Source: a virus
Taxonomy: Duplodnaviria; Caudoviricetes
IMG/VR virus record: IMGVR_UViG_3300044656_000252
Span: 12,232 to 76,231 of that record
Length of the DNA stretch: 64,000 nucleotides
Strand: one strand, 5' to 3'
Made by a program: the position numbers and the translations under genes. Below, piece by piece: positions 982-28,402 of this stretch (its first letter is position 1; every line of letters starts with the position of its first letter). Below the pieces are notes generated by a model. The model was not told where the DNA came from. It worked only from the letters and a program-made list of their open reading frames with translations, and did not search any database.

Positions 982-1196
982 TGGTCCTCGTCATGCACAT
1001 GCGCAACGGCGACGCAGTCACGTACAGCCCGAGTGACGCCCAGGCAGCTCGGCTGATCAGCGGTCTCCAGCAGTACGGCTTCAGCTACAGCAACCTCACG
1101 ATCGACGACGGCTCGGACGGCCAGCGCCTGGTCAACCTCGCCGCCGTCGACTGGATCGAGGTCAAGGGGGTGCCCAGTGCTGCGCCTACGCCGTGA
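981..1196 (+). CDS. Hypothetical protein (71 aa)
   Basis: TGATG coupling to the previous gene; C-terminal part of ORF 555..1196. Confidence 0.6.
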   Translation: MVLVMHMRNGDAVTYSPSDAQAARLISGLQQYGFSYSNLTIDDGSDGQRLVNLAAVDWIEVKGVPSAAPTP

Positions 1197-1815
1197 CCTC
1201 CTGGACGCCGTGGTCGCCCACTGTCGCGCCGAAGCACCCCTCGAAGCGTGCGGCGTGCTCGCCGGCCGCGACGGCGTGCCCGAGCGGCACATCCCGATGC
1301 GGAACGCCGAAGCCTCTCGCACTCGCTACGCCATGGACCCCGACCAGCAGCTCGCGGTGTGGCGGGAGATGGACGAGCGCGGCGAGCAGCCGGTGGTCAT
1401 CTACCACTCCCACCCAGCCACCGAGGCCAAGCCGTCGGCGCCGGACGTGCGGTTCATGGCCGAGCCACGCAGCCACTACGTCATCGTCTCGCTCCGCGGC
1501 GAGTTGCCGGAGGTTCGGTCGTGGCGCATGGCCGCTGGCGCCGGCGTGGTGTGCGCCGGCGCGGTGACCGAGGAACCGATCGACGTCATCCACAGAGGGG
1601 AGTGGAAGACCGAGTACTTCCACGTCGGCTACATGGACGGCTCCCTGTGGGTCACCGACATTGACGGCGGCCCAGACGACGGGTGGCTCATCGTCCCGCA
1701 CGGCGGCCTCGACGACCTAATAGCCGCCCTCAAATCGGCACGGAGAGTGACCGTCGACCGCCGGTTCTCGCTGTCGAGTGTCTCGGCGCACGGGGCTGAG
1801 ACCCGTACCCACTAG
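1177..1815 (+). CDS. JAB/MPN/Mov34 metallopeptidase (Mec/M67-like) with C-terminal extension
   Basis: EACGVL and YHSHP.TEAKPS..D JAMM motif. Confidence 0.88.
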   Translation: MLRLRRDLLDAVVAHCRAEAPLEACGVLAGRDGVPERHIPMRNAEASRTRYAMDPDQQLAVWREMDERGEQPVVIYHSHPATEAKPSAPDVRFMAEPRSHYVIVSLRGELPEVRSWRMAAGAGVVCAGAVTEEPIDVIHRGEWKTEYFHVGYMDGSLWVTDIDGGPDDGWLIVPHGGLDDLIAALKSARRVTVDRRFSLSSVSAHGAETRTH

Positions 1816-2806: not shown

Positions 2807-3147
2807 GCGAGCCCGAGATCGACACGCTGAAGAAGGCCATCCGCGAGGAACTCGGCTGCCTCTGGAGCGACCTCCACGACGCGCAGCAGAGCGGCATCCG
2901 CACCGACTGGTCCATCAAGTGCATCAACCTCGCCGAGCGGATCACCGACCTGACCAAGCTCGTCGGACCCACGCCATGGGACGAGGTGCCCCTGCCGGTG
3001 CTGGAGAACGGCGTCTACCAACGCGTCCTGGCCTCGATCGGCATCACCGCCGACGTCGACATGGCGAAGGTGGCCGAGGTGCGGGCCAGCATCGACGAAC
3101 GTAACCGCCGCACGCTGGCTCATGTCGAGCGGATCAGACAGCGGTGA
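2803..3147 (+). CDS. Hypothetical protein directly upstream of terL
   Basis: GGAGG RBS with ATGA overlap; helical; no small-terminase motif recognised. Confidence 0.6.
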   Translation: MSEPEIDTLKKAIREELGCLWSDLHDAQQSGIRTDWSIKCINLAERITDLTKLVGPTPWDEVPLPVLENGVYQRVLASIGITADVDMAKVAEVRASIDERNRRTLAHVERIRQR

Positions 3148-4748
3148 CTGCGGTCCAGGATCCCGAGCCGACCCTCGATCCGGCAGACCCGGCGTCGGGG
3201 GTCGGCTTCAACCTGGACGCGTACCTCGCGCAGTTCGACCCGCGGATGCTGGAGATCGCCGAGTGCCGGCGGCTCCTCACCAAGTACGACCCGCTCTTGT
3301 TCGCCTTGCTGTATCTGCCGCACCACCTGCGGGGTAAGGAGACCGGCGAGCGCATCACGTTCAGCGAGTTCCACCTGGACGTCGTCGTCGAGGCGAAGAA
3401 GTGGGCGCTCCCATCCGACAACCCGGCGGAGGACCGGGATACCTACGTCGGCCCCCGCGGCGTCGGTAAGAGCACCTGGTTCTTCCTCGTGCTGCCCCTC
3501 TGGTCCGCGGCGCATGGGCACCGCCGGTTCTGCGCCGCCTTTGCACACTCCGCCACGCAGGCCGAGTTGCACCTCCAGACGTTCAAGCGCGAGCTCGACC
3601 AGAACGCGTTGCTGGCGCTGGACTTCCCCCAGCTGTGCACGCCGGCCCGCCGGCCGCGCGGAAGCACCGAGTCCGACAACCGCGGCATGCTGATCACCAA
3701 GTCCGGGTTCGTGTTCGCCGCCCGCGGTGTCGACGGCGCCGCCCTCGGCATGAAGGTCGCCGAGCGGCGGCCAGACCTGATCGTGCTGGACGACGTCGAG
3801 CCCGACGAGTCGAACTACTCGCCATATCTCAAGGAGAAGCGGCTCTCCACACTGCTCGACGCGATCCTGCCGCTCAACGTCTATGCCCGCGTGGTCCTGG
3901 TCGGCACCGTCACCATGCCGGGCTCCATCGTGCACGACTTGGTCAAGACCGTCACCAAGCCCGGCGAGGAACACCCGCCGTGGATTGCCGACGAGCACTG
4001 GCGAGTCCACTACTACCCGGCGATCGTCCGCGACGACGAGACTGGCGTCGAGCGGAGCCTGTGGCCGGCGAAGTGGCCACTGGCCTACCTCGAATCGATC
4101 CGGCACACCCGCGCCTACAAGAAGAACTACGCCAACGACCCCATGGGTCGGGACGGTGAGTACTGGCGCGAAGAGGACTTCGTCCACGCCACCGTGCCTG
4201 CACTCACGCACCAGCTGCTGTCGATTGACCCGGCGGTCACCGACAAGGGCAAGAGCGACTTCACCGCGCTGGCCGTCGTTGCCTACTCGGCGCACCACCG
4301 GCGGGTCGTCGTCCGCTACGCCCACGCCCGGCGCGTCCAGCCCGGCGAGCCGCTCCGCAAGTGGGTGCTGGAGGTGCTGGAGGAGTTCCCGGAGACGCGC
4401 GGCGTGGTGGTCGAGACGAACCAGGGCGGCCAAGTCTGGCGGGACAGCGTCCTCAAGGGACTCCCGCTGCCGATCAAACCGGTGCACCAGGGCGAGGCCA
4501 AGGAGGTCCGGGCCGCCCGCGCCCTGAACTGGTACCAGCGCCGCCGGCCGGACGGGCTGCCGTACGTCGTACACGAGCGTCCGCTGACGCAGGCCGAGGA
4601 GCAGATGGTCGGCTTCCCCAAGGGCGCGCATGACGACCTGGTGGATGCGATTGGCACCGGCATCGACATGTTCCTCAAGCCGGGCAAGAAGTCGAAGGTC
4701 ACCGTGCTGCCGCCGGCTGGGTTCGATGCCGATGACATCGCCTCTTGA
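3144..4748 (+). CDS. terL: Terminase large subunit
   Basis: Walker A GPRGVGKS, Walker B LIVLDD, RNase H-like nuclease LSIDPA...DFTA...HDDLVDA. Confidence 0.95.
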   Translation: MTAVQDPEPTLDPADPASGVGFNLDAYLAQFDPRMLEIAECRRLLTKYDPLLFALLYLPHHLRGKETGERITFSEFHLDVVVEAKKWALPSDNPAEDRDTYVGPRGVGKSTWFFLVLPLWSAAHGHRRFCAAFAHSATQAELHLQTFKRELDQNALLALDFPQLCTPARRPRGSTESDNRGMLITKSGFVFAARGVDGAALGMKVAERRPDLIVLDDVEPDESNYSPYLKEKRLSTLLDAILPLNVYARVVLVGTVTMPGSIVHDLVKTVTKPGEEHPPWIADEHWRVHYYPAIVRDDETGVERSLWPAKWPLAYLESIRHTRAYKKNYANDPMGRDGEYWREEDFVHATVPALTHQLLSIDPAVTDKGKSDFTALAVVAYSAHHRRVVVRYAHARRVQPGEPLRKWVLEVLEEFPETRGVVVETNQGGQVWRDSVLKGLPLPIKPVHQGEAKEVRAARALNWYQRRRPDGLPYVVHERPLTQAEEQMVGFPKGAHDDLVDAIGTGIDMFLKPGKKSKVTVLPPAGFDADDIAS

Positions 4749-4867: not shown

Positions 4868-6526
4868 GTGGACAAGAACCTCGCGCTCACCGATCAGGCC
4901 ACCATGGGCGTCGCGGCCACCCCTACCCTCATGTCGGATTCCGCCTACGGCGTATGGCGCCCATCATCGCCCTCGGACCTGCAGAACGCGATCGAATCCC
5001 TCACCACCTCCGCGGTGCTCTACCAGCGCGCCGAGAACTACTACGAGGGCACCGTCCCCGAGTTCTTCGCCTCGATCCGGCTCCGCCGCGCCATGGCCCG
5101 CACCGGTGTGGGGTTCCGGTTCAACTTCGCCAAGACCCCCGTGGACGCTGTCGTCGACCGCCTGGAGATCAACGCCGTCTCCGCGACCGACGAGAACAGC
5201 AACGCCCGCATCGAGGACATGTGGCGCGACAACCAGCTCGACCTCGAGGCCCCGCACATCATGCTCAAGGCGTGCGAGTACGGCGACGCCTACGTCATCG
5301 TCTGGCCCACCGCCCCGGACGGCGCCGACGACTTCGAGGGCGACGGGTCACCGCAGCTGCTCGACACCGACGCCGACGGGTTCCTCAACGTCGACATCTT
5401 CTACAACAGCCCGCACTGCTGCCGGGTCTTCTACGACCCCGAGCGCCCACTGCGGAAGCGGTACGCGGTCAAGAAATGGATCTTGAACAACACCCAGCAG
5501 GTCCGCATCGACCTGTACTACCCGGACCGCATCGAGCGGTTCATCTCCAAGGAGGGCGTCACCAACGTCGAGGCCACCGACATGCACCCGTACCGGGACA
5601 ACCCGGGTGACGAGTGGCCGCTCGTAAATCCGTTCAACGAGGTCCCCGTCTTTCACTTCCGCGCGGCCAGCCGGCCGTACGGCAAGCCGGAGCACCTGTC
5701 CGCGTTCGGCCCGCAGGACGCGATCCACAAGCTGATCCTCAGCCACATGGCTGGCGTCGACTACCAAGCCTTCCCCCAGCGGTACGCGCTCACCGCGCCG
5801 GACACCGACACCGCCGACGCCGTCAACTCCGACGAGGACGAGTTCAGCTTCGCCCTCGACACCGGCGCCACCAGCCGGCCATCCGACCCGCAGTCCCAGC
5901 TGACCAGCGACCCCGGCTCGCTCTGGTACATGCAGGGCGTCACCGAGGTCGGCCAGTTCGCCGAGGCCAACCCCGAGACGTTCATGGGCCCGCTCCAGGT
6001 CTACCTGCGGGCCATGGCCCAGCTGTGCGTCACCCCGTTCCACTACTTCGACCCCAGTGGCGACGCCCCGTCCGGCGAGTCCCTGCGCACCGCCGAGGGG
6101 CCGTTCGTCAAGAAGATCGTGAACCGCCAGCTGTCCTTCGGCGCGACCTGGCGGGAGATCTTCGAGTTCGCCCTGCGCATCACCGGCGTCCCCGACCCCA
6201 AGGTCACCGTGCACTGGAAGTCCCCGGCCAGCGTGGACGACCTCACCGGCTGGCAGACCGTCCAGGCCAAGCTCGACGCCGGTGTCCCGCCGGCGCAGGC
6301 GTTCCAGGAGGCCGGCTACACCAAGGACCAGACCGACGAGTGGTTCGGCGACAACGACGACGACCTGCCGTTCCGCGTGCACCTGCTCTCGGAGATCGCC
6401 GTCGCGTTGCAGGGCCTCTCGGCCGCGGCCTCGACCGGCATCGTCGACGAGGGCCAGGTGCAGGAGCTGATCAGCTCGATCATCGGCGAGCCCGAGCTCA
6501 TGGGTCCCGACACGGGCACAGCGTGA
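4868..6526 (+). CDS. Portal protein (SPP1 gp6-like)
   Basis: Follows terL; NYYEG, NFAKTPVDAVVDRL, YGDAY, SGESL motifs; 552 aa. Confidence 0.93.
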   Translation: MDKNLALTDQATMGVAATPTLMSDSAYGVWRPSSPSDLQNAIESLTTSAVLYQRAENYYEGTVPEFFASIRLRRAMARTGVGFRFNFAKTPVDAVVDRLEINAVSATDENSNARIEDMWRDNQLDLEAPHIMLKACEYGDAYVIVWPTAPDGADDFEGDGSPQLLDTDADGFLNVDIFYNSPHCCRVFYDPERPLRKRYAVKKWILNNTQQVRIDLYYPDRIERFISKEGVTNVEATDMHPYRDNPGDEWPLVNPFNEVPVFHFRAASRPYGKPEHLSAFGPQDAIHKLILSHMAGVDYQAFPQRYALTAPDTDTADAVNSDEDEFSFALDTGATSRPSDPQSQLTSDPGSLWYMQGVTEVGQFAEANPETFMGPLQVYLRAMAQLCVTPFHYFDPSGDAPSGESLRTAEGPFVKKIVNRQLSFGATWREIFEFALRITGVPDPKVTVHWKSPASVDDLTGWQTVQAKLDAGVPPAQAFQEAGYTKDQTDEWFGDNDDDLPFRVHLLSEIAVALQGLSAAASTGIVDEGQVQELISSIIGEPELMGPDTGTA

Positions 6527-7602
6527 CCGCCCCGCAGCCGCCGCAGACCCCGAACCAGCCGACGCTGCAGCTGGTGCTGGAGCACGCCGCCGAGGCGCTG
6601 GCCCTCGAGCGGGCGGCCCGCGGTGTCGCGGCGCCACTACGCGCCAAGCTGAAGGCGCTCACGCGCACGCTCTCCGCCTTGTGGGTGCGGAAGGTTGGCC
6701 GGGTCGACGAGCCGGCCGACCCGATCACGCTGCACGACATCGCCACCGAGACACGCAACCGCCTCGCCGACATCCGGTTCACCCCGGCCGACGAACTGAC
6801 TCGGTACGCGGAGCAGGCCATCGACCTCGGTGTGCGGCAGGCCGTGGACGAACTGCACCTCCACGCCACCGAAGGAGCCGTCGAGCACGTCCTGCCGGCG
6901 ACCGGCCGCCGCGCGGCTCGTTTCGAGTGGCCAGCGGCCGACCTCGACCAGGCCACCGTGGACGCGATCCGCGCCGTGGACGCCACCGTCGCCGGCAAGC
7001 TCGCCGACGCCGAAACCGCCGTCACGCGCATCGCCGGCAACAACTTCGCCGAGCTGGCCACCGCACTGTCGCCGGCGCAGCAGGCAGCGACCGCGACCGA
7101 GGCGACCGCAACATGGGCCACGAACAAGGCCGTCAACGACGGCGTCGCCGCGGTCGCTGACCAGCTCGACGCCGAGCGGCTGTGGGTCGCGGAGCGGGAC
7201 GCGTGCGTGCACTGCCTCGCCTACTCCGGGCACGTCGCGAGAGCTGGCCAGGGCTTCCCGGTCGGGCTGACGTTCGGCGACAAGCCGCTGGTGCCGTGGC
7301 CGGACCCGATGTTCCTGCCCGGATGCCCGCTGCACCCGCACTGCCGGTGCCGGATCACGGTGTGGCTGGGCAGCGTGCCCGGCTACACCGGCCCCGACCT
7401 GCCGGCCGCGCTTCGCCGGGAGGCCGAGCGCAGCATCCTCACCGGCTGGCGCATGGCGTCCGAGTCCCAGCCGGCCAGGCTCCGCGCCGCGTCTCGGCTG
7501 CTCGCCCGCGGCACGACCCTGCCGAAGTCCGTGCAGGCCCGTGCCCGCACCGCGGTCCGCCGCGGCCGGTTCAACGACTTCCCCCGCAAGGCCCGATCAT
7601 GA
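6523..7602 (+). CDS. MuF-like minor head morphogenesis protein
   Basis: WVAERDACVHC and PLHPHCRC motifs; lies between portal and scaffold. Confidence 0.8.
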   Translation: MTAPQPPQTPNQPTLQLVLEHAAEALALERAARGVAAPLRAKLKALTRTLSALWVRKVGRVDEPADPITLHDIATETRNRLADIRFTPADELTRYAEQAIDLGVRQAVDELHLHATEGAVEHVLPATGRRAARFEWPAADLDQATVDAIRAVDATVAGKLADAETAVTRIAGNNFAELATALSPAQQAATATEATATWATNKAVNDGVAAVADQLDAERLWVAERDACVHCLAYSGHVARAGQGFPVGLTFGDKPLVPWPDPMFLPGCPLHPHCRCRITVWLGSVPGYTGPDLPAALRREAERSILTGWRMASESQPARLRAASRLLARGTTLPKSVQARARTAVRRGRFNDFPRKARS

Positions 7603-7619
7603 TCGAAAGGAACGCCGCC

Positions 7620-8402
7620 ATGCTGCTCGACCTGCCCATCCACCCGGACACGCTCCTGCCCGCCATCGGGCTGCTCTCCGACGGCACGCCCGTCTGGCCG
7701 GCGCTCGGCGGCGCCAACGATGACGACGACGGCCCCGAGATCGACCTGGAGGGCGGCGGCTCGCAGGGCAGCGGCGGCGGCCGGGACATCCTCGACGACG
7801 AAGACGACGAAGACGAGGAGGACGAGCACGACGACGGCGCCGACAAGGCCAAGGGCGACGAGTGGAAGCCGCCCACCCGCGAGGAGTGGGAGAAGACCCA
7901 GAAGGCCCTCACCGAGGCGAACGCCGAGGCCAAGAAGCACCGGCTCCGCGTCCGCGAGCTCCGCAAGTCCACTCGCGCCGCCGAGCAGGGCGGCGGCCAG
8001 GCCGGCGACGAGGACGCCGCGGCGCGGGAGCAGGCCGCACTGGAGGCCGCCGAGCAGAAGTTCAAGCCGGTTGCCATCCGGTCGGCCGCGATCGCCGCGC
8101 TGATGAAGGCGGACTTCCGCAACCCCACCGAGCAGCGCCTGAACCGCATGATCCGGCGCCTGGACATGGACGAGCTCGACGTCGACACCGAGACCGGGAA
8201 GGTCGACGGCCTCGAGGACCAGATCGACGACCTGGTCGACGAGTTCCCCGAGCTGTTCGGCAAGGACGCCGAGCCGGAGCCGGCCAAGCCGGAGCGCCGC
8301 CGCGCGCCGCGGATCGACGCCGGGAACAAGCAGCCCGCGCCCGCGCAGTTCAAGACGACGGGGGAACGGATCGCCGCGCAGATCCACAACTCGATGCGGT
8401 AG
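7620..8402 (+). CDS. Scaffolding protein (alternative start 7599)
   Basis: Acidic tract, coiled coil EANAEAKKHRLR, PELFG motif; directly upstream of capsid. Confidence 0.85.
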   Translation: MLLDLPIHPDTLLPAIGLLSDGTPVWPALGGANDDDDGPEIDLEGGGSQGSGGGRDILDDEDDEDEEDEHDDGADKAKGDEWKPPTREEWEKTQKALTEANAEAKKHRLRVRELRKSTRAAEQGGGQAGDEDAAAREQAALEAAEQKFKPVAIRSAAIAALMKADFRNPTEQRLNRMIRRLDMDELDVDTETGKVDGLEDQIDDLVDEFPELFGKDAEPEPAKPERRRAPRIDAGNKQPAPAQFKTTGERIAAQIHNSMR

Positions 8403-8440
8403 ACGCAATTCCCTAAACCGTGTGAAAACGAATAGGGGAA

Positions 8441-8616
8441 ACGCGCCTAGAAAGCGCCCACACTATCCGTGTCGGGCGCTTTCGCGTGTATTCTCCGAGA
8501 CAGCAGGCCACCCGGATGGGACGGCCCGCTAGGACCGGCGATCGGGCAATTCAAATGCCCTGACGTGCCCGTGATGGGGCGCAGGACACCACCGCACCCA
8601 TCACTCGGAAGGGCAC
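8441..8616 (+). promoter_or_regulatory. Multi-hairpin 5' leader of the capsid gene
   Basis: GAAAGCGCCC/GGGCGCTTTC (8450-8483), GGGCA/TGCCC (8544-8560), GTGCCC-GTGATGGG/CCCATCAC-GGGCAC (8565-8616) overlapping the RBS. Confidence 0.5.
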
Positions 8617-8621
8617 GCGCC

Positions 8622-9680
8622 GTGTCTGCATCCCAGTTCGACCTCGACCTGTTCGACGAGTCCGTTCCGGCGCACGACGTCGGCGACATCCTCGGCTACC
8701 GCCGCAACGGCGAGCCGATCCGCGCCCTCGGTGGCAGCGCCCGCAACAACTTCGACGCCTGGGTCTGGGAGGAGTTCGGCTCCGACGTCATCCAGAAGGT
8801 CAAGCAGGTCTCGGCGATCGAGTCCTACGGCCAGCGGGTCCCGATGAAGACCGCCACGCGCTCGACCCCGCGGTCTGGCGGTGTCGGCATCGACATCGTG
8901 GCCAAGGGCGGGACGTACGGCGAGGACCAGTCGACCAACGACCAGGTCATCCTGAGCGTCCAGAAGTTCGGCAAGGCCGTGCGGATCGCCGAGGAGGACA
9001 TCGACGACAGCCTGGCGGACGTGGTCAACACCAAGCTGTCCGACTGGGCCACGGCTTACGCCAAGGGCCTCGACAACGCCTGCTTGGGCGTCACCGCGGC
9101 GAAGGCGACCTCTGGCTGCGCGTTCGACTCGCTGTACTACACGCTCACCCAGACCGACTCGGCGACCGGCTACCAGGCCAACACGAACCTGACCAAGACC
9201 GGTTCGGGTGGCACCACCTACGACCTGCTGTCCACCACGGTCGGCCTGGTCGAGACCGGCGACTACTGGGACGAGGAGCAGGCCCTCGTGCTCGCGCACC
9301 CGACGTTCAAGAGGAAGTTGCGCGGCATCAAGGACCTCAACGGCCGGCCGATCTTCCAGGAGTCCAGCGGCGGCTTCCCCGGTGGCGGCCAGGCGTCCAC
9401 CCCGGACATGCTGTTCGGCTACCCGGTCAAGTGGACGCTGGGTGCCCGCACCTCGGCAGCGCCGACGGCGACGCCGACCGGCAACCCGCTGCTGGTCATC
9501 TGCTCGAAGGAGTTCCTGCTGCTCGGTGTCCGCAGTGGACCCGAGTCCGTCTTCATTGACGGGAGGAATGGATTGGCCGCCTTGACCGACGAGTCGATCC
9601 TCAAGATGCGTGCTCGGCGCGCGTTCGCCGTCGGCCACGAGAACGCCTTCTCCGTGCTGGAAGACAACTCCGGCAGCTGA
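8622..9680 (+). CDS. Major capsid protein (HK97 fold)
   Basis: Position; KFGKAVRIAEE, KLRGIKDLNGRPIF, LFGYPV motifs; GTG start after GGAAGG. Confidence 0.92.
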   Translation: MSASQFDLDLFDESVPAHDVGDILGYRRNGEPIRALGGSARNNFDAWVWEEFGSDVIQKVKQVSAIESYGQRVPMKTATRSTPRSGGVGIDIVAKGGTYGEDQSTNDQVILSVQKFGKAVRIAEEDIDDSLADVVNTKLSDWATAYAKGLDNACLGVTAAKATSGCAFDSLYYTLTQTDSATGYQANTNLTKTGSGGTTYDLLSTTVGLVETGDYWDEEQALVLAHPTFKRKLRGIKDLNGRPIFQESSGGFPGGGQASTPDMLFGYPVKWTLGARTSAAPTATPTGNPLLVICSKEFLLLGVRSGPESVFIDGRNGLAALTDESILKMRARRAFAVGHENAFSVLEDNSGS

Positions 9681-23900: not shown

Positions 23901-24880
23901 TGTCGACGACCACGACCCGCGCAGCGCTGGTCAAGCCGGCGACGAGCGAGTTTTACGACGTCACGATCTTCAACGCGAACGCCGACAAGATCGACAACCT
24001 GGTGGGGTTCACGCCGGCCACCAGCACCACCAGGCCGTCCACACCCATCGCCGGACAGGGGGTGCTGGAGTCAGACACTGGCGCTGCGGTGGTGTCCAAC
24101 GGATCAAGCCCGGCGTCAGCGTCCTGGAGCTACCTGCACGGCACCGGTGGCCCTGCAACGCTCGGTGCGACCGGGGCACAGGCAGCGCTGCGGATCCAGA
24201 CCACCGCCACGATCTCTGGTAATCGGGTCGTCGACTTCCGCAAGTCCGGCGACACCAACGCCAGCTTCATCCAGGACTTCGACGGACGGATGCAGTGGGG
24301 CCCCGGCGGGTCAACCAATGTGGACGTCAACTTGTACCGTGCCAGCGCCGGCGTCCTGAAAACGGACAACACGATCAACGCCGTCACGGATGTCCAGGTC
24401 AACGGGAGCAGTCTGTCGCGGGGAGTCGTTGGCGGCCGGCAGATCACCGGCACCAACAACCTCGGCCCCACGATCACCACGACCGAGACCGAACCGACCA
24501 ACATGGACAGTGGATCGGTCGCGCTGAGCTCGAACCGCCGATACCGGATCACGGTCCGGTTCAAAGCGCTCGGCTCTGTCGCCAACGACATCTACTCCCT
24601 GAAGATCAGGGTCGGCGCGACGGCGGGCACAGGCGGAAACCAACTTCGGGAGAACGTGTTCACCATCCTGGCCAACGGGATCGGGTACACGGACGAGTTC
24701 TCCACAGACTACGAGACCGGCAGCAGTCCCGGATCGCTGGTGTTCACGATGACCGCGGTTCGCGTGTCTGGCAGCGGCAACATCCAGTTCCAGGGTGGTG
24801 CGGCCGGGCTCGCCAACCCTGTTGGCGTGGTCGTCAAGGACGAAGGCCCTGCCAACGTGCTCACTACCACCGCCAGCTGA
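23900..24880 (+). CDS. Minor tail / fibre protein
   Basis: NANADKID and TSTTRPSTPIAGQ motifs; beta-rich. Confidence 0.7.
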   Translation: MSTTTTRAALVKPATSEFYDVTIFNANADKIDNLVGFTPATSTTRPSTPIAGQGVLESDTGAAVVSNGSSPASASWSYLHGTGGPATLGATGAQAALRIQTTATISGNRVVDFRKSGDTNASFIQDFDGRMQWGPGGSTNVDVNLYRASAGVLKTDNTINAVTDVQVNGSSLSRGVVGGRQITGTNNLGPTITTTETEPTNMDSGSVALSSNRRYRITVRFKALGSVANDIYSLKIRVGATAGTGGNQLRENVFTILANGIGYTDEFSTDYETGSSPGSLVFTMTAVRVSGSGNIQFQGGAAGLANPVGVVVKDEGPANVLTTTAS

Positions 24881-24893
24881 CAAGGAGACGAAC

Positions 24894-25865
24894 ATGCTCG
24901 GTCTGGACTACTCGGGAGGGCGACCGTCCGGCGCGGCCATCTACGCCGCCAGCTATCGGTTCGTCGTGCGGTACCTGGAGAACGGCCTCGGTGGCGGCCG
25001 ATACAACCTAACTGCAGCCGAGTTCGCCGACCTACGCGCCAACGGCGTCGCGGTCGCGCTCGTCTGGGAGTCACAGGCCAACCGCGCAGCAGCTGGCCAT
25101 GACGCCGGCGTCGCCGATGCGCGAGCGGCGCTCGCCGCGGCCGATGCTGTCGGCGCGTCAGGCTGGCCGATCTACTTCGCGGTGGACTTCGACATCCCCG
25201 ACTATGCGCCGGCCGCCATGTCGGCGCTCGCCAAGCTCGGCCCCGTCGGGGACTACCTCGCGGGCGCCGCCAGCGTGCTCGGGCACAGTCGCACCGGCGT
25301 GTACGGCGGCTACTACGCGGTTTCCCGGGCGCTGGACGCCGGGCTGGCCAGTCTCGCCTGGCAGACAGAGGCCTGGTCCGGCGGCCAGGTCGACCCGCGC
25401 ATCCACCTCCTTCAACGCCTCGGCACCGTCGTGGTCGACGGCGTCGAGTGCGACACCAACGAGGCCCGGCAGGCCAGCTTCGGGCAGCAACCCCCGGGAG
25501 CGGTTCGCTCCCCGAACAGTGAGGACGACGACATGTGGAAGTTTCTGGTCGACGAGGGAACCGTGCAGACGGACGGTTCCTACACCCGGTGCGCCGAACT
25601 CCTGCCCACCGCCGAGCTCATCGGCACCAGCTGGGCCGACATCAGCGCCAAGCTGGCCGAGGCCAAGGCCGGCGGTGCGCCGGCAAGCGTGCGCGGCGTC
25701 GACACCGCCGTGTTCGACGACTACGAGAAGAACTCCGATGCACACAAGGCCGCCACCGCCGCCCTCGCCAAGCTGACGAGCGGCGGCGGCGGAGTGACGG
25801 CCGCGCCGACGTCGCTCGCTTTCGATCTCGCCGTGACCGGCACGGCCACCCCTAAGACCTCGTGA
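24894..25865 (+). CDS. Endolysin, DUF1906 (Rv2525c-like) glycoside hydrolase
   Basis: GLDYS, VALVWE, IYFAVDFD, TGVYGG, WQTEAWSGG motifs. Confidence 0.88.
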   Translation: MLGLDYSGGRPSGAAIYAASYRFVVRYLENGLGGGRYNLTAAEFADLRANGVAVALVWESQANRAAAGHDAGVADARAALAAADAVGASGWPIYFAVDFDIPDYAPAAMSALAKLGPVGDYLAGAASVLGHSRTGVYGGYYAVSRALDAGLASLAWQTEAWSGGQVDPRIHLLQRLGTVVVDGVECDTNEARQASFGQQPPGAVRSPNSEDDDMWKFLVDEGTVQTDGSYTRCAELLPTAELIGTSWADISAKLAEAKAGGAPASVRGVDTAVFDDYEKNSDAHKAATAALAKLTSGGGGVTAAPTSLAFDLAVTGTATPKTS

Positions 25866-27436: not shown

Positions 27437-28402
27437 ATGACGGCGATGGAACCGCAGCGGGCCGGGCGACTCGGCCGGCTCCCGAACGACCCGAGCAAGC
27501 CGCGGCTCAAGCTCGCGCCGCACCTGAACACGGCGGTGCCCCCGAACCCCGCGGTGGTGGACTGGCTCTCGCGGGTCGGGTCGTGGCCGATGTACGGCAA
27601 CGACCAGTACGGCGACTGCGTGTGGGCGATGATCGGACACCTGATCGAGGCGTTCTCCACGTACGGCGGCGGCAGCACCGTCACCGTGCCGGAGCAGGCG
27701 CTGCTCGACGGCTACACGGCGGTCACCGGATTCGACCCGTCCGACCCGAGCACCGACAACGGCACCGTCATCCAGGACGCGCTGGCCTACTGGCTGAAGG
27801 TGGGCATCGCCGGGCACAAGATCCTGGCCTACGCCGAGGTCGACATCCACAACCAGTCCGAGGTGGACGCGGCGATCAACGTGTTCGGCGCCCTGTGCCT
27901 CGGGGTGAACCTGCCGAACTCCGCGATGGACCAGTTCAACGCCGGCCAGCCCTGGACGGTGGTCGCCCCGGACGGCGGTATCGACGGCGGCCACGCGGTG
28001 CCGGTCGGCTACTACAGCACGCCGGGCGAGACCGTGCGCGTGGTGACGTGGGCGCGGACGCAGGACGTGGCCGACGCGTGGTGGTCGCAGTACGTCGAGG
28101 AGGCGTGGATCGTCGTCGCGCCGGAGTGGCTGGACGCAACCGGTCACAACCCGGAGGGGATCGACCTACACGGGTTGGGTGAGGACTTCGCCGCGCTGAC
28201 CGGGAGGCCCAACCCGTTTCCCGTCCAGCCCACCCCCGGTCCTACTCCCGTCCCTGCTCCGCCGGTTGCGGACGCTGCTGACCAGGCTCTGGTCGCTGCT
28301 CTCCGGCCGTGGCTGAGCGAGCACCACGTCGGAGACAACCGGCACGCGGTGCACGCCGTGGAGACGTGGATGGCGGCGAAGGGACTGTCGCTGGCCTCGT
28401 GA
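27437..28402 (+). CDS. Papain-like (C1-type) cysteine peptidase
   Basis: NDQYGDCVWA (Cys), GGHAV (His), VVTWA. Confidence 0.78.
   Translation: MTAMEPQRAGRLGRLPNDPSKPRLKLAPHLNTAVPPNPAVVDWLSRVGSWPMYGNDQYGDCVWAMIGHLIEAFSTYGGGSTVTVPEQALLDGYTAVTGFDPSDPSTDNGTVIQDALAYWLKVGIAGHKILAYAEVDIHNQSEVDAAINVFGALCLGVNLPNSAMDQFNAGQPWTVVAPDGGIDGGHAVPVGYYSTPGETVRVVTWARTQDVADAWWSQYVEEAWIVVAPEWLDATGHNPEGIDLHGLGEDFAALTGRPNPFPVQPTPGPTPVPAPPVADAADQALVAALRPWLSEHHVGDNRHAVHAVETWMAAKGLSLAS

Follow-up and report, generated by a model that had tools for sequence, protein, structure and literature searches.

Proteolytic maturation of the head is textbook biology for tailed phages, and the enzymes known to carry it out belong to the HK97, T4, and ClpP types of serine protease, with one host cysteine protease, Prp, in addition. 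Here, we describe a short N-terminal leader that the scaffolding protein and the major capsid protein of one actinobacterial phage have in common, together with candidate genes for an enzyme that would remove it. The DNA analyzed is a 64,000-nucleotide stretch of IMG/VR record IMGVR_UViG_3300044656_000252 (the window). It makes up the final 64 kb of a phage genome that is complete at 76,231 bp and bears direct terminal repeats.

Comparable leaders have been described in other phages. In staphylococcal phage 80alpha, assembly depends on the scaffold leader, whereas cleavage of the leader is dispensable (PMC5744158). In mycobacteriophage Patience, the capsid protein is processed (PMC4324244), and the N-terminal-most peptides of gp21 start at residue 35, after a Gly, which is explained neither by trypsin nor by translation initiation (Pope et al. 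2014, PMC4324244). By cryo-electron microscopy in 2025, the capsid protein was built from Thr-20 in Patience and from Asn-28 in Adjutor (PMC11965321). Thr-20 is the residue directly after the Gly-Gly of the Patience capsid protein; the leaders of the scaffold-like gp21 and the capsid protein gp23 both end in P-I-F-G-G, followed by T. Outside phage assembly, JAMM peptidases of the Mec/desampylase type cut right after a C-terminal h-A-G-G tail (h, hydrophobic). The system described here varies on two known themes: the leader common to the scaffold and capsid proteins of 80alpha, and the JAB "protease" encoded among the head genes of Patience-type phages. Its motif sets it apart from the former, and its JAB branch, gene position, and optional enzyme set it apart from the latter.

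The leader in the window and among related phages

The leader is a real, portable, and optional module common to the scaffold and capsid proteins. The genes and segments concerned are as follows.

7620..8402, + strand: scaffolding protein, 260 amino acids (aa) (Pfam Phage_scaffold, E = 1.1e-11; phrog_4708, E = 4.5e-15)
7620..7712, + strand: scaffold leader, residues 1-31, of a divergent P-V-W-P-x-L-G-G subtype, with an acidic tract immediately after it
8622..9680, + strand: major capsid protein, HK97 fold, 352 aa (Pfam Phage_capsid, E = 6.8e-18; TIGR01554, E = 8.9e-21)
8622..8738, + strand: capsid leader, residues 1-38/39, canonical type, ending in A-L-G-G-(S) (E = 2e-15 against the capsid-leader profile)
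1177..1815, + strand: JAB/JAMM zinc peptidase, Mec/desampylase-like, with an approximately 80-aa C-terminal extension; candidate leader peptidase

A sequence-only reading of the window had placed a shared leader at the two N termini, and the translations agree with it. In the scaffold, the leader ends in G30-G31 (last base, 7712), preceded by A-L; in the capsid protein, which starts with GTG at 8622, it ends in A-L-G-G (G37-G38; last base, 8735), followed by S-A-R-N-N-F. With no further in-frame start codon before the junction, translation from 8622 has to include the capsid leader, and a database protein identical to the capsid protein (P0007) has the same start. The TIGR01554 alignment begins at residue 38, which corresponds to model position 106, and the conserved mature part begins with A-R-N-N-F. 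By alignment, the capsid junction is G-G|S or G-G-S|A. The pattern proposed by the sequence-only reading had exactly two matches among the 805 six-frame open reading frames (ORFs) of the window (109,483 residues), both at these N termini, against 0 to 0.01 matches after residue shuffling, a test that is circular, the pattern having been taken from this very pair.

The leader was further examined in 111 related loci, taken from phage isolates, IMG/VR contigs, and prophages of Streptomyces, Kitasatospora, Pseudonocardia, Saccharothrix, and Actinosynnema. A profile of 69 capsid leaders alone was searched against the 22,172 six-frame ORFs of these loci. It found scaffold N termini, about 60 of them with E < 0.01 (best, 3e-9) and always directly before the acidic tract; no other protein matched under E = 0.1. 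Conversely, a profile of scaffold leaders alone picked up capsid leaders, including that of the window at an E value of 1e-3. The scaffold leader of the window did not match the family profile significantly on its own (E = 3.2) and was linked to it through locus L014 (E = 0.003). Its P-V-W-P-x-L-G-G subtype is common to the window, L014, L033, L043, L046, L056, and L104.

The leader core comprises 18 to 22 residues, h-h-G-aromatic-x3-G-x-P-[IV]-x2-[IVL]-A-G-[GAS], with a short variable start before it; the A/S directly after it would be the first residue of the mature protein. This core looks like a beta-hairpin. Around the junction, G at -10, P at -8, I/V at -7, I/V/L at -4, A at -3, G at -2, G/A/S at -1, and A/S at +1 are nearly invariant in both proteins, so that small residues (A/G at -3, G/A/S at -1, and A/S at +1) surround an invariant Gly at -2. 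Among 36 distinct scaffold leaders, P at -8, I/V at -7, and G at -2 were invariant and G at -1 was found in 83%, the remainder having A or S; in the capsid protein, G30 and G38 were invariant in 44 leader-bearing homologues. Thus, the Gly-Gly ending noticed in the sequence-only reading is correct for the two proteins of the window and fails as a strict rule for the family, in which one Gly at -2 with small flanks is what is conserved. Scaffold and capsid leaders of the same phage resembled each other more than those of different phages (means of 8.6 and 7.0 identities of 18, respectively; permutation p of about 0.002, with few independent lineages). When compared with Pfam at E values up to 10, the leader peptides matched nothing relevant.

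The leader is widespread and optional among related phages. It was present on both proteins in 46 of the 111 loci, on the scaffold only in 36 (mostly Streptomyces prophages), and on neither in 25; the other 4 loci were truncated and were not assigned. No resolved locus had a capsid leader without a scaffold leader. The more than 1,300 capsid homologues fell into two length classes, of about 350 aa with the leader and about 314 aa for the short forms. About 50 of the short homologues begin with M-A-R-N-T exactly at the leader end, and leaderless scaffolds begin with M-A-D exactly where the acidic tract of the others starts. In close phage pairs, whose capsid proteins are 81 to 88% identical, the leader was lost cleanly and in frame with the order terminase, portal, MuF, scaffold, and capsid unchanged. 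The leader is portable, because it also occurs on a scaffold beside a capsid protein of the unrelated SU10 family: in one prophage (L191, G220:C4:105000-118000, 6444-8566), a Gly-rich scaffold carries a canonical leader, the SU10-family capsid protein (PF17236, E = 5e-90) carries none, and there is no MuF gene.

Structure and polymorphism said little about the leader itself. An AlphaFold2 model of the capsid protein (31 sequences) had a mean predicted local distance difference test score of 63.5, with the leader below 50, and was uninformative on the leader; sequence and profile searches of solved structures gave no significant match to the capsid or scaffold protein. The ratio of nonsynonymous to synonymous polymorphism was 0.73 in the leader and 0.54 in the mature part, a weakly informative difference because synonymous sites are constrained by the GC content at third codon positions. 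Within the mature capsid protein, an internal segment, N-G-R-P-I-F-Q-E-S-S-G-G (residues ~237-258; window 9330-9420), echoes the leader core without statistical significance.

Candidate peptidases in the phage and its hosts

The sequence-only reading had recognized no HK97-type prohead protease gene, and this holds over the whole 76,231-bp genome, which gave no match to Peptidase_S78, ClpP (S14), or S49. Prp (Peptidase_Prp, PF04327) was found in none of five host genomes, whereas control genomes did match. Likewise, no host protein with the leader was found in the 5 host genomes or in 401 Actinomycetota genomes; the matches were phage or prophage scaffold and capsid proteins only, plus one weak match to a Pro/Gly-rich loop of a membrane protein. 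The phage resembles 80alpha (PMC5744158) in the order portal, gp7/MuF-like protein, scaffold, and capsid, in having no phage prohead protease, and in its short shared N-terminal leader; the capsid leader is dispensable in both, by mutants in 80alpha and by evolution here. However, the 80alpha leader ends in F|A and copies ribosomal protein L27, and it is cut by host Prp. With Prp missing from the five hosts and the leader missing from the host proteins searched, the mechanism is not that of 80alpha.

The JAB gene offers another kind of enzyme. Its product matches Prok-JAB (PF14464) at an E value of 2.3e-29, with the desampylase family NF041370 as the best NCBIfam match (E = 1e-22), and the JAMM motif is intact (upstream Glu, E-x-C-G ... 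H-S-H-x7-S-x2-D). It is about 50% identical to the Mec-type JABs of the hosts and 28 to 29% identical to Patience gp19 and Adjutor gp11. Of 14 whole records with both leaders, 8 contained a JAB; of 14 others (11 scaffold only and 3 leaderless), none did. For a 10-kb neighborhood of the capsid gene, the figures were 11 of 46 loci with both leaders and 0 of 61 others; 8 to 9 of the 11 have the JAB between the scaffold and capsid genes, sometimes 150 to 350 nt upstream of the latter. The co-occurrence of leader and JAB, which the sequence-only reading had proposed as a check, is one-sided: no JAB was found in a phage without a capsid leader, and 6 of the 14 records with both leaders lack one.

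More broadly, no gene family tracked the leader by occurring in leader-bearing phages and being missing from leaderless ones. This was so for the 10-kb capsid neighborhood and for a comparison of ten whole genomes (3 with both leaders, 4 with the scaffold leader only, and 3 leaderless), a small sample in which non-orthologous replacement would be missed.

An IMG/VR contig (L061, 3344-3694) encodes a capsid protein 100% identical to that of the window and a JAB about 79% identical over the domain, which points to mosaicism around the JAB gene. The junction between scaffold and capsid genes is an insertion hot spot, with accessory inserts of 2 to 7 kb beside the JAB in several relatives (L047:5422-9151; L043:6078-9105; L011:3578-8183) that include a homologue of Tad3, a type I Thoeris inhibitor (E = 9.5e-30), DUF6221, a TROVE (Ro60-like) protein, and a BTG-family protein.

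Patience-type phages provide a close parallel. Patience gp19, called a protease, is a Prok-JAB (E = 6.8e-10) with an intact JAMM motif, and gp20 is MuF-like. Both systems have the order MuF-like, scaffold-like, and capsid and a shared leader ending in hydrophobic-x-G-G, and the Patience capsid leader fits the motif from G at -10 to G at -1. They differ in several respects. The JAB of the window belongs to a host-Mec-like branch (28% identity to gp19; E = 1e-3) and lies upstream of the terminase gene, whereas gp19 lies between portal and MuF; it is optional among the relatives of the window, as the whole records show; and the capsid and scaffold families are different, the capsid protein of the window matching neither Patience nor the PDB. 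About 98 records of Mycobacterium and Gordonia phages carry a JAB like gp19 inside the head module, variously annotated as head/capsid maturation protease, metalloprotease, or tail protein. In Adjutor (L194, EU676000; 6419-8782), the scaffold-like gp15 and the capsid protein gp17 share a different leader ending in L-S-G-H-D, right before Asn-28, so leaders associated with JABs are not all of the Gly-Gly type. In the literature, we found no paper tying a JAB to the Patience-type cuts and no virion proteomics for the related Streptomyces isolates.

A cellular parallel is given by CysO, ThiS, MoaD, and SAMP with the JAMM peptidases Mec+ and HvJAMM1. These proteins share the hydrophobic-A-G-G tail, which is cut directly after Gly-Gly, and the JABs encoded next to cysO in the hosts share about 50% identity with that of the phage. 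In all five host genomes, a Mec-type JAB stands beside a ThiS-family gene (the mec-cysO pair), and the CysO tails end in P-A-V-A-G-G. By contrast, the leader is about 20 to 35 residues long, has no beta-grasp domain, and has a tail about 3 residues shorter, and the functional product would lie after the cut, not before it. In locus L166 (G029:C10, ~1486-1773), a host CysO-like protein by a Mec-type JAB ends in A-V-A-G-G-M-R, two residues past Gly-Gly, and may need trimming by the JAB.

Proposed leader removal and competing explanations

We propose that the leader would serve as a common handle during procapsid building and would then be clipped at the small-Gly-small junction. Clipping would expose the N termini (A-R-N... 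in the capsid protein and the acidic tract in the scaffold) that leaderless relatives make directly with Met. No classical prohead protease would take part; most plausibly, the cutter would be a JAMM-type (JAB) zinc enzyme of the Mec/desampylase type, here the phage's own JAB (1177-1815), and in relatives without a JAB gene the very similar Mec enzyme of the host would have to act. Removal at the junction, as the sequence-only reading had suggested, is probable in this phage, given the leaderless Met starts, the conserved small junction residues, and the Patience precedent. If the leader is removed, a JAMM peptidase is somewhat favored as the agent, the phage JAB here and possibly host Mec elsewhere. 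The explanation as a whole, with a shared assembly handle clipped by phage JAB or host Mec, stands at roughly even chances.

The assignment to JAB, one of two possibilities raised in the sequence-only reading, is helped by its restriction to phages with a capsid leader, its intact JAMM motif, its place between the scaffold and capsid genes in several loci, the mec-cysO pair of all five hosts, and the head-module JABs of Patience-type phages. Several observations weigh against this proposal. The 6 of 14 both-leader records without a JAB include complete genomes (G011, Lizz, and Yara), a near-complete one (G010), and less complete ones (G002 and G008), and a search of the first four for a hidden Patience-like JAB found none; the JAB was also absent from every scaffold-only genome checked. 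Rescue by host Mec in JAB-less phages is an assumption. The JAB of the window lies upstream of the terminase gene, outside the head module, and the slot between scaffold and capsid genes, a frequent JAB site, is an accessory island with Tad3 anti-Thoeris, TROVE, and BTG domain genes; the JAB may therefore be anti-defense cargo. About one-sixth of junctions have A or S for the second Gly, including that of L064, in which a JAB adjoins the capsid gene, and such replacements are usually disliked by deubiquitinase-type enzymes. The leader has no ThiS/MoaD match, and its tail falls short of that of host CysO. In this phage and its close relatives, the leader could also stay on the protein.

A permanent leader would be a docking or folding hairpin, pairing with itself, the other leader, the portal, or a chaperone, with Gly-Gly as the hinge to the mature fold. 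In 80alpha, assembly requires the scaffold leader and not its cleavage (PMC5744158); moreover, the two leaders of one phage covary, the leader is optional in evolution with gene content unchanged, and small residues suit a hinge too. However, the Patience proteins that have this motif are without their leader in the virion, A/S at +1 is conserved in both scaffold and capsid, which are unrelated to each other, and leaderless forms reproduce the exact N terminus after the junction; we consider a permanent leader unlikely. Slightly further down the scale, and quite unlikely in our judgment, is clipping by another host protease that accepts small-Gly-small|small, with the phage JAB unrelated and, for example, reversing ubiquitin-like conjugation in host defense. 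The many leader-bearing genomes without a JAB fit such an enzyme, as do the anti-defense genes adjoining the JAB, the tolerance of A or S at -1, and the absence of any phage gene family tracking the leader in the ten-genome comparison. It is opposed by the absence of Prp from the hosts and of any host protein with the leader, hence of host-substrate mimicry as in 80alpha, by the confinement of the JAB to capsid-leader phages, and by its retention inside the head module in Patience-type phages.

The sequence-only reading had also named a papain-like protease (27437-28402) and, by analogy, C39 peptidases that cut after double-glycine leaders. The junction does resemble such leaders, with an invariant Gly at -2, G/A/S at -1, and hydrophobic residues at -4 and -7. 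But the complete genome has no C39 match (PF03412), the substrates here are cytoplasmic structural proteins, and the leader is hairpin-like, because it is rich in Gly and Pro, rather than helical as in double-glycine leaders. The 27437-28402 product matches no Pfam or NCBIfam family and has no homologue in any related phage isolate, including those bearing the leader; its best annotated relative lies under features labeled cysteine protease and amidase. Its gene is in the lysis region, about 1.6 kb downstream of one for a protein with an Rv2525c-like glycoside-hydrolase-like domain (24795-25865; E = 3e-20), which is probably a lysis enzyme. This candidate was thus not borne out, and removal of the leader by either type of peptidase is very improbable. 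Finally, chance or composition without shared function would fit the shortness of the shared part in the window alone and the lack of significance of its scaffold leader in the family-profile search. It leaves unexplained the reciprocal profile matches down to 3e-9, at the same position in both proteins and in more than 100 loci, and its probability is close to nil.

Head gene order and significance

The genes upstream of the scaffold gene give the context of the head module.

3144..4748, + strand: terminase large subunit (phrog_38, E = 8.3e-68)
4868..6526, + strand: portal protein (SPP1_portal, E = 8e-8; phrog_104, E = 4.8e-63)
6526..7602 (start approximate), + strand: MuF-like minor head protein (weak match to Phage_Mu_F; phrog_241; homologues annotated MuF-like)

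In the cluster table, the MuF-like gene is found in relatives of all three leader states and therefore does not track the leader. The MuF-like protein was also considered as a hidden protease and was rejected: no JAMM or other protease motif was seen in it, it occurs with all three states, and it is absent from the SU10-type module that has the leader. At 7599-7602 (ATGA), its stop codon shares bases with what may be another scaffold start, 21 nt before the ATG at 7620, an arrangement that suggests translational coupling; the leader is included from either start (7599 or 7620). A 220-bp noncoding gap (8403-8621) separates the scaffold and capsid genes. In this gap, an inverted repeat with perfect 10-bp arms (8450-8459 and 8474-8483) lacks a T-run behind it; the repeat may form an RNA hairpin or act as an attenuator upstream of the capsid gene, which is highly expressed.

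The three natural states of the leader (both proteins, scaffold only, and none) are a ready-made genetic series, and cultured phages with leaders on both proteins that differ in the JAB, Dryad having it and Lizz, Yara, and ShakeNBake lacking it, make the question directly testable; KimJongPhill and Zuko are cultured relatives without the leader. The claim of a distinct capsid maturation route is fair, with the reservation that GenBank already labels some mycobacteriophage JABs as head or capsid maturation proteases. If the proposal is true, removal by a JAMM peptidase of a leader with a ubiquitin-like Gly-Gly tail would introduce a class of enzyme new to virus assembly, and the inconsistently annotated "metalloprotease" or "tail protein" genes of about a hundred actinophage genomes would gain a function. 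A still wider view, which we put forward as doubtful, is that actinobacterial phages use a JAMM peptidase, of a class known elsewhere for acting on ubiquitin-like and sulfur-carrier tails, for head maturation and that those without a JAB rely on host Mec, an enzyme of the cysteine pathway, to trim a mini ubiquitin-like tail from the scaffold and capsid proteins. Mec would then be the actinobacterial counterpart of Prp, and the phage JABs would be captured copies of host mec.

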